Source: Elsinoe ampelina (Eukaryota). From it: DNA of 43,064 bases. Shown here one piece after another: positions 1 through 43,064 of this stretch. Below the pieces are notes generated by a model. It worked only from the letters and a program-made list of their open reading frames with translations. It searched no databases and was not told where the DNA came from. The stretch spans positions 2,674,728 through 2,717,791 of the forward strand of contig ML992502.1 in NCBI GenBank assembly GCA_010093995.1, in the 5' to 3' direction. The stretch's first letter is position 1. Each line of letters begins with the position of its first letter. The position numbers were made by a program, and so were the translations under genes.

Positions 1-9
1 TCTACAGAG

Positions 10-165
10 GCTTCCGTATACTTTGCCAGACTCATCGTCTGGTTCAGATGCCAGAAGTCTACTGTAGCCCCGAATCACAACGAGCGAAAAGCGCCCCGAA
101 ACTCTGCTAGCCAGATGTAGAGGCGCTCAGAGCTCGTTTGAGCCCTGCTTAGCAGGTTGCTTTTT
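10..165 (+). ncRNA. Candidate structured small RNA (Pol III-type), copy 1
   Basis: Diverged direct repeat of 768-918. Four hairpin stems are conserved between copies while three of the loops differ. A-box-like TGGTTCAGATG at 40-50, T5 run at 161-165, downstream B-box at 199-209. Family not recognised. Confidence 0.55.
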
Positions 166-198
166 GCCACTTTGGCATGCAAATGGGCGGCGGTTCTT

Positions 199-209
199 GG
201 TTCGATTCT
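199..209 (+). promoter_or_regulatory. Pol III B-box-like element downstream of copy 1
   Basis: GGTTCGATTCT fits GGTTCRANNC and is conserved in position with 963-973, although the surrounding spacer has diverged. Confidence 0.5.
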
Positions 210-728
210 GTGCTATGCGATGTTCTTTTTGAGGCAATTTTCAGCATCGTGTTGGACAAGTGACGTGTCTCTTTGCTTGTCCTCTCCCATCACCAAAGCT
301 TCTGGATACGAGTATTCACCGGTGCGACATTTTTGGTAGATATTTTGATGCTGATGTCATCGTGATCAAAGAATTCAATGAGTAGTGACTTTGAATGAGG
401 AATCTTCGTGTAGCGAGCCAAAGGAGGCGCACAGTTGGTAGTCGATTATGATTGCACGATTTGCACAGGGGACCTCATCTGTGAGCGGATGTCCGTTACC
501 TAGCCACACAGTAGTCCCTTGTAGAAACAGATAGAGCACTCACCATTACGATGGCAGCGGAATGACTTCCTCTTGCAAGATGAGCGCTGCTCACGGCGAG
601 AACGAACGACACCGATACTGCAAGTTACAGGTCTTGTCTTTGTGAGTTGGGCAATGGGCATTTGGCATGTGATATTGCAAGCAATCCAGCCTGCGATATG
701 CAAGTCATACCACATTGGTGCATGACAT

Positions 729-734
729 TATATA
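729..734 (+). promoter_or_regulatory. TATA-like box upstream of candidate ncRNA copy 2
   Basis: TATATA about 35 bp upstream of the start of the shared repeat (G768). The equivalent site for copy 1 lies outside the window. Confidence 0.35.
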
Positions 735-767
735 GTTATCAGTCGTCCCTTTTCCTCATCCTACAAT

Positions 768-918
768 GCTTCCGTATACTCTGCCAGATCCGTCTGGTCC
801 AGATGCCAGACATTGTAGCCTCAAATCACAACGAGCGAAAAGTTCCCCGAAAACTCTGCTAGCCAGATGTAGAGGAGCTCAGAGCACGTTTGAGCCCTGC
901 CGAGCAGGTTGCTTTTTT
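768..918 (+). ncRNA. Candidate structured small RNA (Pol III-type), copy 2
   Basis: Hairpins CCAGA/TCTGG (784-797), CTCTGC/GTAGAG (854-874), GCTCAGA/TTTGAGC (877-895) and CCTGC/GCAGG (896-908). A-box-like TGGTCCAGATG at 795-805 and T6 terminator at 913-918. Confidence 0.55.
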
Positions 919-962
919 GTTGTTCTCGGTGTCAAATCACGTGATGTTGTAGCAGGCACGTG

Positions 963-973
963 GGTTCAATTCT
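963..973 (+). promoter_or_regulatory. Pol III B-box-like element downstream of copy 2
   Basis: GGTTCAATTCT, 45 bp after the T-run, matching 199-209. Confidence 0.5.
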
Positions 974-1179
974 CATCAGCCGACTTATTTTTGAGCGAAA
1001 TAGTCTTCATTAGTCTAAAAATAATGGCATCGTAGCAGTTCAGAAAATAACTAGGTAGTTTGCCGATTAGAAGAAATTCGTCATGTGACGCTCGCCCCCC
1101 CAAGGACTGCCCCCGTGAATTCAACGCCTTAGATAACTACAATCTATCCCACTAGATCGAAACTTCATCCATTTTTATC

Positions 1180-2658
1180 ATGCCTTCTGCAGTGGAACAA
1201 GCCTTGGTGACACTTGTGCCGTCTGTCAATAATCTTCCCATCGAATTGACGAGTCTTGCCAATGCGTTGTTGATGCAATCTCGCTCAAAAGCAGCGAAAC
1301 TCAAACCTGACGAGGAGATCGCCAGAACATATGTCTGCAGTCACATTGCTTGCGAAAGGTAAGTTCTGAGCGTGTCTGATCATGTCATAGTCGCGAATGA
1401 CGACGAAGGCTAACGTGGACGGCACAGGCTCAAGTCTCGACTCGGTTTAGAAATACAGCCACGACCGCCGGTCCCACCACGAGTGTACAAGAAGCTCAAA
1501 GCATTCTTTGACAAGCAACTTGATGTCCCATCGACTCCGAGCGCCGTTCGTCAGGTCGATGCGCTCAACCGAAGTGGTGCGGATAGCTCACGTAAAGCTA
1601 CCCCCGCTTCAAACAGGAGTGCGGTGACGCCGTCGTCCCGCAAACGCCTCCGTGATACCCAAGACGACACTCCGAGCAAGACTCCCGCCGGTGTTGTGCT
1701 ACCGGAGACTGGAGGTGACGATGCGGACACCCCATCTCGAAGGTCCGAGAAGCGTGCTCGCCCATCATCAGCCAAGGATCTAGCTGAGCTCGCAGCCGGC
1801 GCCACGAAGTCACCGAACCGCAAGTCTGGGAGGCTGTTCGCACCATCTCCGAATAAGCAGAATGCGCCACCTGAGTGGGTAGATGACATGATTGCAAGAC
1901 TGGCAAACAAATTTGAGGCTCCTGCCGCCACCCATATTCGCGCCGGCCTTGACCATGTTCTCGCAGTGCGAGGCTTCTCGATCGAAGATGCGCTGGATGC
2001 AACGTCGTCGACGTCCAAATCACGAAAGACCAAGGCTAAAGAGCCTGCTCCCCACGAAGGCAGTGGAATCATCACTCCTCTACGTCTCCCGGCACTTCTC
2101 ATCATCCTCACCCTGTTTGTCGTCGGCAAACAGAAGGGGTGGCGACTCACCAATCAAGACCAATTCGCTGCGAAGCAAGACACTGGACTGGAGGCCATTC
2201 GAGAGATGGAGGAAGGCTGGGCGCCTGAAGAAGAAGCACTACAGGCAGACTTGGAAGGATTCCTCGCAGCCGCTGGAGAGGAGGGATGGATGAATGCGGA
2301 ATGGTTCCAGCATGTGACACCGGAGGATGATCTGGACAAGATGGACGTGGATGATGAAGTCACGACTCGGGGCAGGAAGAAGATGCCAAACAAGACGCCA
2401 TTGAGGAGGAAGGAGAAGCATGCCCCTCGGCCGACGGCTAATGCAGATGAGGATGACGACGAGGACACGGCGGCGGGGCTTCAAGTCGGACTCGGCACCA
2501 TGTTCCAGGACGCAATAGATTGGCTCAGCGACGATAGAAGGGAGGAGTACAGAGAGTGGAAAGCCGGCATCTTGCACCGTCTCGACGAACTGGAAGGTGT
2601 CCCAAGCACCAACTCAAGCAGGAAAAGGACGAGCAGACCCGTAGTGTCTGCAGCCTAA
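1180..2658 (+). CDS. ORC6: Origin recognition complex subunit 6; exons 1180-1358 and 1428-2658, 469 aa
   Basis: Intron 1359-1427 (GTAAGT, GCTAAC branch, CAG) joins the two track ORFs in frame. Motifs LKPDEEIARTYVCSHIACERL, PRPPVPPRVYKKL and C-terminal GLGTMFQDAIDWLSDDRREEY are typical of filamentous-fungal Orc6. It also has several S/T-P-x-K/R CDK sites. Confidence 0.9.
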
Positions 2659-2727
2659 ATTCTCATCCCATGACGATAAAGTCAAGCGACCAGCGCCATC
2701 TATACTCAAGGGTATCTACGCTCACAG

Positions 2728-4182
2728 CTAATACCAAATACTCCTCGTCCTATGATGCGGAATCGCCTCCGCCCCTTCCTTCTCCCTCTCCTTTGCCAAA
2801 TCATACAAGAAGAAATCAATCAGCACGGCATTCACCTCGGCCTCCGGGTGAGCTGCCACGATCTGTCGCCGTATGAGCTCTACGACCCATATGCTGCATC
2901 CGCGCAGCTGGCACTCCCAGCTACTGCCTGACTCGATCATTTGCTTGGTGCGGATGGCGTAGTCTAGCTTTGGGCTGTAGGAGAGGCAGCCGAGGGAGTG
3001 GAGTTGTTGGGGAACGCGGTAGTCTGATGTGTCAGTCATGATGCTTGGGTCTGGCCAGGAGGAGGAGGGAGGGAGGGGGCTTACCGGCGAACATAGTCAG
3101 ATGGTCGATGTCGTGGAATTCCCCGTAGCTTTGCCCGTCAAACGCGGCCCATAGGTCGGCGACGAAAATCTGGGGACGCTTGAGGAAGCGGACTTTCTTT
3201 CTGTCGAAGGTGGATTCGTCGCGGAAGCAGGCGAAGTGGTGGGCGAGCAGATTGGTCAACTTGCCAGCGCTTTTGTCGGCGGATTGAACCAGGTTGGCGA
3301 CGCTGCCGTCGAAGATCTGGATGGTTAGTGGATGACGATGGACAGTGTGGGAGGGAAAGGAAGGCTTACATCTCGGAGTACTTGACCTGCTTCACGGAGG
3401 ACGTCGAGGCGTTGGAGGAGGAGGGGCATATCCTCCTCTCCGTTGCCACGGAAGATGTGGCGCATGGATTCTTCTGTGAGATACGACGTAGTGGTCGTCC
3501 CCTCCATGTAATCTTGAGTCTGTTCAGCAACGCCACCGTCCTCGTTCGTAGCCAGGGCACCTTCCTCAGGCTCATCGACCTCGAGCACGTTATCACTGTC
3601 AAGAAGGTTTGGTGGCTGTTCTACTCCATCCGTTGCCATTTCCGCGGATGATGCGTCTCTTCGCTCCTCTGGATCTTGGGAGTGATCTGGCATCGATTCG
3701 ATGTCGGAAGCCACTGATTTGTCTTCCTCCTTCGGTAGCCAGAATGAAGGCGACGTGATTGGTGTGCCTTCGTCAAGCGCTCTTTGGAGTGCAGCGACAA
3801 GGCTCCAATACCCTGTCCATCGCTTCTCTCGGTACTCGATGCTCCATCGCTTATCCTCGCCCAGTTCAGACCAAAAGCTGAAGTTCAGCAAATCCATAGT
3901 AAAGATAAAGTTCAGCGTCGCTTCATCCTTTGCTTTCGGGTGAAGCTCATGTTCTGACCAGGCCGTTCTGGAATATGATCTGCGTTGCATCTCCTGCCAT
4001 ATCAGCTCAGCGGCATTGACCGTGCCGGCCCTGTCGATTGCCACATCAATGGCATTGCCGTAGATATACTCAGCATCTCGAAGCACTTTTGTCTCCGAAG
4101 TGATCTCGTTTGTCTTCGGTTTGATGCCCAATGACTTCCGCAACAGCTCCAGGAGTTCCGGATCTGCTTCGTCGTCCGACAT
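2728..4182 (-). CDS. QNG1: Queuosine salvage protein / queuosine 5'-phosphate N-glycosylase (DUF2419, C9orf64 family); exons 4182-3370, 3316-3085, 3023-2728, 446 aa
   Basis: Introns 3317-3369 (GTAAGC..CTAAC..CAG) and 3024-3084 (GTAAGC..CTGAC..CAG) join three track ORFs in frame. Family motifs: FTMDLLNFSFW, GYWSLVAAL, FRDE, KRPQIFVADLW, MFADYRVPQ (spans intron 2), DFFLYD and terminal HHRTRSIWY. Confidence 0.93.
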
Positions 4183-4266
4183 CACTCCTGCCTAGCATGA
4201 TCTAGGGGGAAAATCGGGTTGGCCCGATAGTGCATGTGAGAATGAAACTGATTACCTAATAGCATA

Positions 4267-5216
4267 CAGTCGTTTTGAGTTCAACCGAGCCACCCCGGGC
4301 TTGGCGGTACTCTTCACCGACTTCTGCTTACTAAAATTAGCTAGCTAGAAGTCTATAGAGAATACTATAGAGAATATTAATAAATTAAAGCTAAAAAAAG
4401 GTATAATAGTCGCTATACTACTCTAATTAGGTTATTACTATTATAATTAATTATTAAATAGCTAAACTAAAGCTAGTAGATATATAGTTCTTACTTACTA
4501 AAAAGTATACTAATTATGCTATTTATACTACTACTAAGGTAGCTAGAGCTATAATCTATTAAATTTAACTATCTCTTAAGTTCTTTAGTACTTCTTATTC
4601 TTCTATTAAAGCTTATATACTATACTTTTATACTTTTACCTCTTTCTTAGAAGATATAAGTCCTTTATAGCTAAGCTCTTTCTATACTAACCTATCTAAG
4701 GAGGTAATAGCCTACCTAAATAATATTTCTACTACTTATCTTAATAAAGTTTAAGCCTTCTTAAGAGAGATATATAATTACTAGATATACTTAAGTATAA
4801 TCTAGTATATAATCTAGCGCTAGTAATAGTCTTAAAAGGTAGCTAAGAAGGTAGTAGCTAAAAGAGATATAATACTTAGAGTAAATTAGACTCGAAGGTA
4901 TATACTTTAGCTAGTTAATAGAATTATTTATATTAATAAGTTAGCTTATAATAAGTATATAGTATAGAGGAGATATAGGTAGACACCTATTAGTAAGAAG
5001 TATATAAATATCTAGCTAAAGTAGCATAGTAAGAGATAGAGCATATTACTAGCTATTACTATTAATAGCTATCTCTTTAGTACCTTAATCTACTATAGAT
5101 TAATTACTAGTAAGATCTTTATTAGCTAGCTAATAGATATAATAATACTAGAGCTTCTAGCTAGTATAATCTTTATTATAGATAATACTTTAATCTACTA
5201 GAGTAATAAGGTAAAG
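4267..5216 (+). mobile_element. Tc1/mariner DNA transposon copy A, left part (TIR and most of the RIP-degenerate transposase)
   Basis: TA at 4265-4266 followed by TIR CAGTCGTTTTGAGTTCAACC, which matches the reverse complement of ~23245-23339. Colinear with 12903-13239 plus 20269-20873. De-RIP reading gives TAYLDEVQ, VDESA and MDNASIH. Confidence 0.88.
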
Positions 5217-6091
5217 NNNNNNNNNNNNNNNNNNNNNNNNNNNNNNNNNNNNNNNNNNNNNNNNNNNNNNNNNNNNNNNNNNNNNNNNNNNNNNNNNNNN
5301 NNNNNNNNNNNNNNNNNNNNNNNNNNNNNNNNNNNNNNNNNNNNNNNNNNNNNNNNNNNNNNNNNNNNNNNNNNNNNNNNNNNNNNNNNNNNNNNNNNNN
5401 NNNNNNNNNNNNNNNNNNNNNNNNNNNNNNNNNNNNNNNNNNNNNNNNNNNNNNNNNNNNNNNNNNNNNNNNNNNNNNNNNNNNNNNNNNNNNNNNNNNN
5501 NNNNNNNNNNNNNNNNNNNNNNNNNNNNNNNNNNNNNNNNNNNNNNNNNNNNNNNNNNNNNNNNNNNNNNNNNNNNNNNNNNNNNNNNNNNNNNNNNNNN
5601 NNNNNNNNNNNNNNNNNNNNNNNNNNNNNNNNNNNNNNNNNNNNNNNNNNNNNNNNNNNNNNNNNNNNNNNNNNNNNNNNNNNNNNNNNNNNNNNNNNNN
5701 NNNNNNNNNNNNNNNNNNNNNNNNNNNNNNNNNNNNNNNNNNNNNNNNNNNNNNNNNNNNNNNNNNNNNNNNNNNNNNNNNNNNNNNNNNNNNNNNNNNN
5801 NNNNNNNNNNNNNNNNNNNNNNNNNNNNNNNNNNNNNNNNNNNNNNNNNNNNNNNNNNNNNNNNNNNNNNNNNNNNNNNNNNNNNNNNNNNNNNNNNNNN
5901 NNNNNNNNNNNNNNNNNNNNNNNNNNNNNNNNNNNNNNNNNNNNNNNNNNNNNNNNNNNNNNNNNNNNNNNNNNNNNNNNNNNNNNNNNNNNNNNNNNNN
6001 NNNNNNNNNNNNNNNNNNNNNNNNNNNNNNNNNNNNNNNNNNNNNNNNNNNNNNNNNNNNNNNNNNNNNNNNNNNNNNNNNNNNNNNNNNN
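5217..6091. other. Assembly gap
   Basis: Run of 875 N. The nesting model predicts ~950 bp of missing sequence (Tc1 segment plus 5' part of an LTR). Confidence 1.
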
Positions 6092-12006: not shown

Positions 12007-12621
12007 NNNNNNNNNNNNNNNNNNNNNNNNNNNNNNNNNNNNNNNNNNNNNNNNNNNNNNNNNNNNNNNNNNNNNNNNNNNNNNNNNNNNNNNNNNNNNN
12101 NNNNNNNNNNNNNNNNNNNNNNNNNNNNNNNNNNNNNNNNNNNNNNNNNNNNNNNNNNNNNNNNNNNNNNNNNNNNNNNNNNNNNNNNNNNNNNNNNNNN
12201 NNNNNNNNNNNNNNNNNNNNNNNNNNNNNNNNNNNNNNNNNNNNNNNNNNNNNNNNNNNNNNNNNNNNNNNNNNNNNNNNNNNNNNNNNNNNNNNNNNNN
12301 NNNNNNNNNNNNNNNNNNNNNNNNNNNNNNNNNNNNNNNNNNNNNNNNNNNNNNNNNNNNNNNNNNNNNNNNNNNNNNNNNNNNNNNNNNNNNNNNNNNN
12401 NNNNNNNNNNNNNNNNNNNNNNNNNNNNNNNNNNNNNNNNNNNNNNNNNNNNNNNNNNNNNNNNNNNNNNNNNNNNNNNNNNNNNNNNNNNNNNNNNNNN
12501 NNNNNNNNNNNNNNNNNNNNNNNNNNNNNNNNNNNNNNNNNNNNNNNNNNNNNNNNNNNNNNNNNNNNNNNNNNNNNNNNNNNNNNNNNNNNNNNNNNNN
12601 NNNNNNNNNNNNNNNNNNNNN
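12007..12621. other. Assembly gap
   Basis: Run of 615 N. The homologous interval in copy c (34671-35335) is 665 bp. Confidence 1.
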
Positions 12622-40600: not shown

Positions 40601-43064
40601 TATAGTTTAGAGTGTAATTCCCTTAGTAGATTAGTAAAGATAGTAATTGCCCTTACTCTCCTTAATAGTATAGCTTCTATTCTTTCGTTATAACTATTCT
40701 AAGCTTAAGTGTAGGGAGTAGATAGCTTATAATAGATTTCTTTACTATCTAGGAAGATAGTAAATTTAAGGCTAAAGGCTTTCTTATTATTACTCTTAAG
40801 GAATTTAATTTTAAAGCTAAGATTACTTTTAATATAAATAATTATCTTAATATAGATTTTATTAATCTTATATCTATAAGTATAGGTAGTAATTAGTTAA
40901 TAGTTAGTAGTTCTATAAGTAAAGTAGCTTATATATCTTGCCTTATTATAGCTAGTAAATCTATTAATAATAATATTAAAAGTAGTTCTCTTAAATAGCT
41001 TTAATATAGCAAGTTTAGTGTTAGAGCTCCTTTATATAATCTACTAAGTATTTAATAGCTTATAAGTCTAATATAGAGACCTAAGATAAATTAGTTAAGC
41101 TAAACTAGGCTTAGTTAGAGTTAGTTTACTACTAACTATAGTAGTTAGAAGGTAATTAATAGACTCTAAGCTTAGATAGCCTATAACTTTATACTAAGAT
41201 TAATTAGTCCTTATAGTAACTATAGTAAATGCTAATAGTAGATAATTATTATTATCCCTTAATACTATAGTAGCAACATTAGGAACTTTAGAGTTATCCT
41301 TAAAGATATATTAGTTATACTTTAGTATAACTAAGAAGAGTGCTTTTCCTTTATAGCTAATCTCTATAGTTTAAGTATTCTAGTAGACTCTACTATTAAT
41401 AAACCTCCTAAGGCTAACTAGATTAGTTATAATTAATAGNNNNNNNNNNNNNNNNNNNNNNNNNNNNNNNNNNNNNNNNNNNNNNNNNNNNNNNNNNNNN
41501 NNNNNNNNNNNNNNNNNNNNNNNNNNNNNNNNNNNNNNNNNNNNNNNNNNNNNNNNNNNNNNNNNNNNNNNNNNNNNNNNNNNNNNNNNNNNNNNNNNNN
41601 NNNNNNNNNNNNNNNNNNNNNNNNNNNNNNNNNNNNNNNNNNNNNNNNNNNNNNNNNNNNNNNNNNNNNNNNNNNNNNNNNNNNNNNNNNNNNNNNNNNN
41701 NNNNNNNNNNNNNNNNNNNNNNNNNNNNNNNNNNNNNNNNNNNNNNNNNNNNNNNNNNNNNNNNNNNNNNNNNNNNATAAATACTAAGTATAATTCTATA
41801 GTTATAGCTATATTAATTAGCACTAGTAGAGTTAACCCCTTCTAATATTATACTTCTTTAGTAAGAATAGTATTAATTCTCTCCTTAAGCATCTTATTAT
41901 TTAGCCTTTATCTAATCTCCTTTATAGTCTACTAGTTTAGTATCTATCTATCTAGCCTTATATACTTATTTAAGTAATAGCACTTACTCTACTTATACCA
42001 GCCTTAATATATATACTTAGGCTCCCTAATAGAACTAGGTTTCTTATAAAGAATATTCTTAGTAGCTATAGAGAAGGCCATAGCTCCCTTACTAGTCTTT
42101 ATAGTATTATATAGCTTATAAAGCTTATAGAACTATCTAAATTTAATAATTAGTTTAAGTATAGTTAGTAGAGTTAGTAAATCTAGATTAATAAGGTACT
42201 TATTAGTAAATACTAGTTTAGTTTTAGAGATAGAGAGTAAAAAGTCTCTCTATAGCCTTAAGCCTTAAGCTTCTAGTAGATTATAATTCCTAGCCTTATC
42301 TATAATCTCTTTCTATTACTAAAGCTAATAGTCTATATTCTATAAGGAAGAACTAGATAGCTACTTCCTCTAGAGTGCTTTAACCTTAAGCTAAATAGCT
42401 ATATTAGATAGAGTAAATCTGTTCTTTAAAGCTTAAAGAATAGCCTATAGATAAGAATTCTCTTCTAGCTAAATAACAGTAAGAACTTATAGTGCAATTA
42501 ATAACTAAATAAGGCTAGCTAAATTAGCTAAGGCCTTATATTATTTATTATACTATGCTTGTTCCTTCTTATATATCTAGAAGAGTACTAAGAAGTTAAT
42601 ATTTACTACCTCTAGCCTCTAAGGCTTAAGGAGCCTCTCTAGCTTAATAGTCTTCTAGGGATTAATAAGGTTCTATATCTTAGTGTTTAAAGCTCTTATC
42701 TTAATAATATATAGCTAGCTAGCTTATTTAGCCGATATAGCAAGAATAATAGGTGTTCTAGCTATTAAGGTGTTAGTATCTATAGTTGTTTATCTCTTTA
42801 TTAACACTTAAATCCTATAGTTGTAATTAAGGCAGTTCTTAATAGATTCTAATACTTAAAAAGCAAGATAATAGAAGATTAACTAATAGATCAAGTAGGA
42901 AAGTAACTAAGTAATATACTTATATAGGGGTAGTTATACTAGGCTTATAACTATTAACTTGTTTATAGAGAGAAAAGAGATTTATTACTACCTAATCTAC
43001 TAAACTAAGGTAGATTATAACTATATAAATACTTAACCTAATAAACTAAGAGATAACTAAATTA
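37680..43064 (-). mobile_element. Ty1/Copia LTR retrotransposon (RIP-degenerate), runs off the window end
   Basis: LTR 37680-37939 is repeated from 42952. PPT AAGGGGTG and PBS-like GTTAT(G)AGCC on the minus strand. De-RIP motifs QMDIVNAYIN (~39210-39243), LNKALYGLKQAP (~39065-39100), FFFVDDI (~38945-38968) and RNase H LADGLTK (~38045-38065). Confidence 0.9.
41440..41776. other. Assembly gap
   Basis: Run of N inside the Copia element. Confidence 1.

Follow-up and report, generated by a model that had tools for sequence, protein, structure and literature searches.

Tandem candidate genes for a structured RNA polymerase III transcript upstream of ORC6 in Elsinoe ampelina

To our knowledge, the RNA polymerase III (Pol III) transcriptome of fungi other than yeasts is known almost only as transfer RNAs (tRNAs) and the 5S, U6, signal recognition particle (SRP) and RNase P RNAs. 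RPR1, SCR1 and snR52 are small structured RNAs whose genes are read from promoters composed of A and B boxes. The S. cerevisiae gene SNR6 combines a TATA element and an internal A block with a B block placed beyond the coding region (PMC5855946). RNA170, a Pol III transcript whose function is unknown, is associated with an extra-TFIIIC (ETC) site, and ZOD1 is the weakly transcribed relic of an ancient tRNA-Ile gene in yeast (PMC5356446). The AfuSINE2 elements of Aspergillus fumigatus are low-copy, tRNA-related short interspersed nuclear elements (SINEs) that measure 140-493 bp and contain A and B boxes in degenerate form (PMC5063351). Here we describe a duplicated element in a stretch of 43,064 nucleotides from Elsinoe ampelina (assembly GCA_010093995.1, contig ML992502.1, positions 2,674,728 to 2,717,791 of the forward strand), hereafter called the window, in which both copies of the element lie within 1.17 kb upstream of the gene ORC6. 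The pair of copies is a real, non-random and gene-like feature of no known family, marked by a repeat with sharp borders, rare and similarly placed B boxes, T-runs and a TATA element. We read it, at a probability of roughly 0.55, as two tandem genes for an undescribed structured RNA of ~160 nt, which would be transcribed by Pol III from the + strand under an SNR6-like hybrid promoter.

Copy 1 of the element, encoding a candidate RNA of ~160 nt, occupies positions 2-165 and copy 2 positions 761-918, both on the + strand. The window begins 1-9 nt before copy 1, whose upstream promoter region falls beyond the window start. By blastn, 2-165 and 761-917 are direct repeats with 87.3% identity over 165 columns (E 5e-48), and no third copy is present on either strand of the 43-kb window at E ≤ 10. 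An nhmmer search of the window with a profile built from both copies, all filters being disabled and the threshold set to E ≤ 100, returned these copies together with two noise hits (E 22 and 51). Repeat search resolves the similarity into in-register blocks at 10-30/768-788 (95% identity), 36-55/791-810 (95%), 63-101/814-852 (90%) and 94-165/846-917 (92%), with offsets between the blocks of 751-758 and the copies ~755 bp apart. The MAFFT alignment over 10-165 comprises 157 columns, 22 of them differing (14 substitutions and 8 gap columns), corresponding to 86% identity. Gaps of 3, 4, 1 and 1 nt between the copies rule out a coding exon. Ten of the 14 substitutions are transitions, nine C/T and one G/A as read on the + strand, a strand bias that may stem from transcription-linked mutation or, the sample being small, from chance alone. 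Repeat-induced point mutation (RIP) was considered as a source of the differences; judged by eye, their contexts are not CpA.

Similarity between the copies ceases exactly at an oligo-T, which closes the conserved block as TTGC followed by T5 (157-165) in copy 1 and as TTGC followed by T6 (909-918, the T6 itself at 913-918) in copy 2. Beyond the repeat block, blastn aligns nothing in the flanks. As the block is 86-87% identical and the flanks are unalignable, about 160 nt have been kept while the spacer of ~600 nt drifted. Local alignment of 166-330 with 919-1083 recovered one stretch only, extending from a B box to the motif TTTTTGAG, with a score of 27 compared with 18.6 ± 3.3 for shuffled sequences and reached by 12 of 500 shuffles. 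The original prediction, made from the letters alone, had described direct repeats at 10-165 and 768-918 separated by otherwise diverged spacers, and both statements are reproduced by these alignments; it had also called the element multicopy, which holds for two copies and no more within the 43-kb window.

Within the conserved block, four hairpins can be drawn, with the stems CCAGA/TCTGG (hairpin 1, 26-30/38-42 in copy 1), CTCTGC/GTAGAG (hairpin 2, 102-107/117-122), GCTCAGA/TTTGAGC (hairpin 3, 125-131/137-143) and CCTGC/GCAGG (hairpin 4, 144-148/152-156). As had been predicted, alignment of the copies confirms that all four stems are identical and that three loops change, namely 1, 3 and 4, with loop 2 being the same in both. 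None of the 22 differing columns falls within the 46 stem columns (hypergeometric P 2.4e-4), nor does any of the 14 substitutions when these are counted alone (P 6e-3), for stems that were picked after inspection of the sequence. This avoidance of stems by the differences is the main evidence for a pairing constraint on the putative RNA. The structural selection proposed in the original prediction is thus upheld in part: the differences keep clear of the stems, and none of the four hairpins contains a compensatory change between the two copies compared. One compensatory pair, G93:C124 to U:A, is found in an alternative helix (90-94/123-127) that overlaps hairpin 3 and also carries C92:G125 to U.G; a neighbouring alternative helix loses one pair in copy 2. 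Further alternatives exist for hairpin 1, where TCTGG at 38-42 is able to pair with CCAGA at either 26-30 or 51-55 in both copies, and the fold of copy 2 takes 51-55.

The same hairpins bear on the question of strand. Hairpins 2 and 3 each contain one conserved G.U pair on the + strand, which turns into C.A on the - strand, so that the - strand consensus forms of the two hairpins are shortened to 4 and 5 bp. Since these G.U pairs, the orientation of the B boxes and the T-runs all lie on the + strand, we infer that this strand would be the transcribed one. A neutral relic of a tandem duplication, functionless and kept alike by local gene conversion, would account for the presence of only two copies and for the poor folding of copy 2. 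Conversion alone, however, leaves the avoidance of stems by the differences unexplained, as it does the persistence of a B box and a second T-run in flanks that are otherwise unalignable, and we hold this explanation to be very unlikely.

The strongest single promoter-like feature is the B box, a tRNA-type GGTTCRATTCT located 33 nt beyond the T-run of copy 1 (GGTTCGATTCT, 199-209) and 44 nt beyond that of copy 2 (GGTTCAATTCT, 963-973). The consensus GGTTCRANTCY has two matches in the 43,064 bases when both strands are searched, at 199 and 963 and both on the + strand, where 0.05 are expected, and none of 100 shuffles reached two. In both copies, a 5-bp hairpin (196-212 and 960-976, + strand) resembles a tRNA T arm, its 7-nt loop and part of its stems being formed by the B box, and ARAGORN draws a T arm at these positions under relaxed thresholds. 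A second oligo-T, the T5 of TTTTTGAG (226-233 and 988-995, + strand), follows the B box after 15-17 nt, an arrangement like that found where a tRNA gene ends at its 3' side; it is conserved between the copies with a similar spacing from the B box, as seen in the sequence and in the local alignment. The module of B box and T arm is probably the relic of the 3' half of a tRNA gene.

The prominence of the B boxes, statistically the strongest feature of the locus, would also suit a duplicated TFIIIC site or another cis-element that acts as DNA upstream of ORC6 without giving rise to a stable product. Yeast offers precedents in TFIIIC-only ETC sites and in weakly transcribed tRNA-gene relics such as ZOD1 (PMC5356446). 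The locus lies 3-4 kb from a border between GC and AT isochores, and two CACGTG motifs are situated between copy 2 and the start of ORC6. However, the best-kept part of the element is the 160 nt preceding the B box and not the B box itself, and the differences avoid self-complementary stems with G.U pairs kept on one strand, a pattern to be expected of RNA and not of protein-binding DNA. A site acting solely as DNA therefore appears rather unlikely.

Additional features are compatible with Pol III transcription. TATATA is located at 729-734 on the + strand, 27-32 nt before the start of similarity at about 761, a comparison that concerns copy 2 only, the DNA upstream of copy 1 being beyond the window. 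The T5 at 161-165 (+ strand), where the conserved block ends, is the candidate Pol III terminator of copy 1. For termination, S. pombe needs no more than T5, T6 is sufficient in S. cerevisiae, and Pol III read-through of 50-200 nt is common (PMC5356446); the T5 and T6 of the two copies consequently lie within the range of fungal Pol III termination. Inside the block, the A-box-like sequences TGGTTCAGATG (40-50) and TGGTCCAGATG (795-805) on the + strand match TRGYNNANNNG, and TGGTYCAGATG is kept in both copies. Apart from the A box, which is taken up below, every promoter-like and terminator-like feature named in the original prediction was confirmed to be present in the sequence: the TATATA before copy 2, TTGC with T5-6 at both copy ends, the B boxes behind them and TTTTTGAG at 226-233 and 988-995.

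A TATATA at a typical distance before copy 2 would equally be expected of a TATA-driven small RNA made by RNA polymerase II, resembling small nuclear RNAs (snRNAs) or small nucleolar RNAs (snoRNAs), with T-runs and B boxes being incidental, and GCUUUUUG loosely resembles what we take to be an Sm-type site. Against such an RNA, neither box C/D nor box H/ACA motifs were seen on inspection by eye, the Rfam search gave no hit to an snRNA or snoRNA model, and no conserved 3' hairpin follows the U-run. Moreover, a B box is paired with both copies where 0.05 matches are expected. We consider this origin quite unlikely.

The element could not be assigned to a described RNA. Across the whole window, none of 4227 Rfam families reached its gathering score, and a permissive search of 1-1100 at E ≤ 10 returned only sR33, an archaeal C/D model, with 14.5 bits compared with a gathering score of 37; this hit is noise, located on the - strand between the copies. 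On the basis of these searches, a known RNA family was rejected. ARAGORN reported no tRNA gene at default or at 90% thresholds, and at 70-80% thresholds it called pseudo-tRNAs that are anchored on the B box and have 5' ends inconsistent between the copies. A tRNA was therefore rejected as well, there being no cloverleaf at default and the relaxed calls being mutually inconsistent. The earlier statement that the element could not be matched to a tRNA, 5S, U1-U6, SRP, RNase P/MRP or snoRNA motif is thus in agreement with covariance-model search and ARAGORN. When compared by eye with consensus sequences, the element contains no convincing box C/D, H/ACA or U1/U2/U4/U5/U6 motif, and likewise no convincing RNase P CR-I, RNase P/MRP or SRP Alu motif. 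With respect to U6, reading of the sequence revealed no ACAGAGA box, and Rfam returned no U6 hit at E ≤ 10 over 1-1100. Ten loci in metagenome contigs that match the invariant 18-mer at 74-91 were discarded as chance hits, as the motif alone matches and the flanks are unrelated. A text search of the literature for the 19-mer at 105-123 gave no match, and searches by title and abstract yielded nothing relevant on Elsinoe non-coding RNA or on a novel RNA polymerase III small RNA in Dothideomycetes; the available part of PMC9569327 does not address the promoter layout of SNR6 in Aspergillus.

Compared with described systems, the element resembles SNR6 in having an oligo-T terminator and, past it, a B block. 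A candidate TATA before copy 2 and an A-box-like sequence inside both copies would extend the likeness, as would the long distance from A to B, which amounts to ~160 nt here and ~200 bp in SNR6 (PMC5855946). It differs from SNR6 in that its RNA would not be U6, given the lack of a U6 hit in Rfam at E ≤ 10, and in that its B box is placed 33-44 nt behind the terminator, where it forms part of a T-arm-like hairpin with a second T-run beyond. Features shared with a tRNA gene or its relic are the B box of T-loop consensus, the 5-bp stem and the oligo-T 15-17 nt further on, whereas a default ARAGORN cloverleaf is missing and the conserved 160 nt upstream are without tRNA likeness. Like RPR1, SCR1, snR52 and RNA170, it would specify a small structured RNA from an A/B-box promoter; unlike them, it matches no Rfam model, including those of RNase P, MRP, SRP and snoRNAs. 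The promoter logic is already known from SNR6, and it is the RNA that would be new.

The boxes resembling a Pol III promoter, the T-arm-like hairpin around the B box and the oligo-T would also suit an element derived from a tRNA, and the pair, instead of being cellular RNA genes, could represent a low-copy Pol III element that is SINE-like or in some other way mobile or in decay, present as two nearby insertions or as one insertion that was duplicated. The locus adjoins a 39-kb RIP-degraded repeat region, and low-copy tRNA-related SINEs with degenerate A and B boxes are known in Aspergillus fumigatus (PMC5063351). With AfuSINE2 the element shares the size range, degenerate A and B boxes, oligo-T and low copy number (PMC5063351), but it has no target-site duplications and no tRNA-related 5' head, its B box is not part of the conserved body, and the 43-kb window contains no dispersed copies. 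Specifically, the flanks share no word of at least 7 nt, the best shared word having 6 nt in the case of copy 2 and 5 nt in that of copy 1 (whose 5' flank is only 9 nt), which is chance level. The 5' part shows no tRNA likeness in ARAGORN, and the B box lies ~160 nt from the A box, past the T-run and across an unconserved spacer, unlike the body of a SINE. An A-rich or LINE-like tail (long interspersed nuclear element) is absent, and neither blastn nor nhmmer (E ≤ 100) detected an additional copy, intact or degraded, in the remaining 42 kb, to which the repeat-rich part belongs. The check for target-site duplications and dispersed copies that accompanied the original prediction, carried out on flank words and by blastn and nhmmer within the window, accordingly found none. 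A SINE-like origin is disfavoured and, in our view, unlikely.

Evidence for transcription comes from sequencing runs, of which ten from four studies cover parts of 1-3000, none recorded as RNA; X3, X4, X7 and X8 were aligned. X3 is taken to be RNA because it carries ORC6 with the intron removed. Its sole cover between 1 and 1166 is a 162-nt contig at 70-231 (depth 3.3, 0 differences to the window). X4, X7 and X8 have no cover on 1-1166, save a 42-nt piece of X4 that is 83% identical and has unrelated flanks; it was taken as a chance match. A read-through transcript would fit the X3 contig, and DNA carry-over or low-level transcription fits it equally, making it a weak hint. Transcription of a non-coding RNA is supported only by this contig of copy 1, which is unstranded and of low depth; copy 2 has no cover.

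Besides the choice of stems after inspection, several observations weigh against a structured Pol III RNA. The X3 contig is unstranded and has a depth of 3.3 compared with 67.5 for ORC6. Its start at 70 falls within the element, and from there it runs through the T5 at 161-165, the supposed terminator, to one base beyond the second T5 (226-230); copy 2 is without cover in X3. In the + strand consensus fold, none of 45 pairs carries a double change, only two sequences being compared. Copy 1 folds on the + strand with a minimum free energy (MFE) of -52.4 kcal/mol and a z-score of -3.07; copy 2 reaches an MFE of -40.1 kcal/mol and a z-score of -0.93, with 40 of 200 shuffles folding at least as well, and lacks the 5' closing stem of copy 1 through a 4-nt deletion. 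Overall, the - strand folds equally well, with a z-score of -3.53 for copy 1 and a consensus energy of -40.4 compared with -40.85 kcal/mol for the + strand. Finally, TRGYNNANNNG has 138 matches in the window compared with 137.3 expected, and the A-box motif is consequently without statistical weight: it is present at 40-50 and 795-805 as had been predicted, at a frequency that does not exceed chance. The proposal of a Pol III non-coding RNA with SNR6-like architecture thus retains the B boxes, the T-runs, the TATA of copy 2 and the conserved block, with the A box at chance level.

In the reading as two tandem Pol III genes, the choice of polymerase, start point and strand, the presence of a stable RNA and whatever function it has are inferred, and the following scheme is conditional on them. 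TFIIIC would bind the downstream B box, within the T-arm-like hairpin that is a probable relic of a tRNA 3' half, together with the internal A-box-like site, and its binding would place TFIIIB over the upstream TATA. Pol III would start near CTACA at 3-7 and 761-765 and stop at the T5 or T6 closing the conserved block, with some polymerases reading on to the second T5, 60-70 nt further. As a committed guess, the RNA may serve as a component of a lineage-specific ribonucleoprotein (RNP), whose likeliest contact sites would be the invariant single-stranded tract at 73-91 and the invariant 9-nt loop at 108-116, and the 3' oligo-U could provide a La/Lsm-type handle. A bolder version, speculative and unlikely, supposes a new fungal Pol III RNA family in which an ancestral tRNA gene survives with its 3' half as a dual-purpose module and the tract at 73-91 acts in an RNP. 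As DNA, this module would be an extragenic B-box promoter; in a read-through RNA of ~225 nt, its T-arm-like hairpin would mark the precursor for tRNA-type 3' processing, and the invariant 19-nt single-stranded tract would be a guide or binding site in the lineage-specific RNP.

Downstream of the element, the ORC6 gene extends over 1180-2658 on the + strand, with its ATG at 1180. The translation is 100% identical to an Elsinoe ampelina protein (NCBI), the next relatives being from other Elsinoe and from Sphaceloma species; the database ORC6 protein carries PF05460, and the exon-2 translation gave no Pfam match at E ≤ 0.001. An intron at 1357-1425 (GT..AG) is confirmed by spliced contigs of X3 and X4, and the 5' end of the mRNA is placed near 1167 because an X3 contig begins there, beside adapter-like letters. 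Two CACGTG palindromes, which we take to be sites of the basic helix-loop-helix (bHLH)/Cbf1 type, are located at 938-943 and 957-962, between the T-run and the B box of copy 2; they precede the start of the ORC6 mRNA by ~210-230 nt and have no counterpart behind copy 1. On 1172-3000, X4, X7 and X8, which are labelled as two different organisms, agree in their variant letters in ORC6 and the gene after it, differing from the window by about 2-8%. These runs appear to contain one and the same diverged strain or a single sister species, and the samples were perhaps mixtures of host and pathogen. Convergent with ORC6, a queuosine salvage protein gene is encoded at 2728-4191 on the - strand (Pfam PF10343, E 1e-32 to 1e-38), which has at least two introns, as the matches fall into three pieces in different frames.

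These genes lie in the gene-rich first 4.3 kb of the window, with ~53% G+C. A sharp border at about 4250-4350, 3-4 kb from the locus, separates them from the adjoining 39-kb RIP-degraded repeat region, in which the DNA from ~4300 to the window end has 29% G+C and strong RIP indices of 1.99 (TpA/ApT) and 0.18 ((CpA+TpG)/(ApC+GpT)). Except for artefacts over runs of N, 4300-43064 is without an open reading frame (ORF) of at least 90 aa. The N runs, at 5217-6091 (875 bases), 12007-12621 (615) and 41440-41776 (337), are assembly gaps or withheld stretches and cause false ORFs in the six-frame translation of the window. Within 4300-43064, motif hits recur both in the direct order and inverted, suggesting that the same repeats are present there in several degraded copies.

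If the tandem copies are indeed Pol III genes, an RNA without known family would be added to the short list of fungal Pol III transcripts, and this in a Dothideomycete plant pathogen. The SNR6 layout, with a B box past the terminator, would then be used by other genes too, and the locus would suggest how such promoters arise from relics of tRNA genes. The dual-purpose module, if real, would be a fungal parallel to the tRNA-like 3'-end formation of other non-coding RNAs. Should the copies be untranscribed, the paired B boxes would instead be candidate extra-TFIIIC sites near the border between gene-rich and RIP-degraded DNA.

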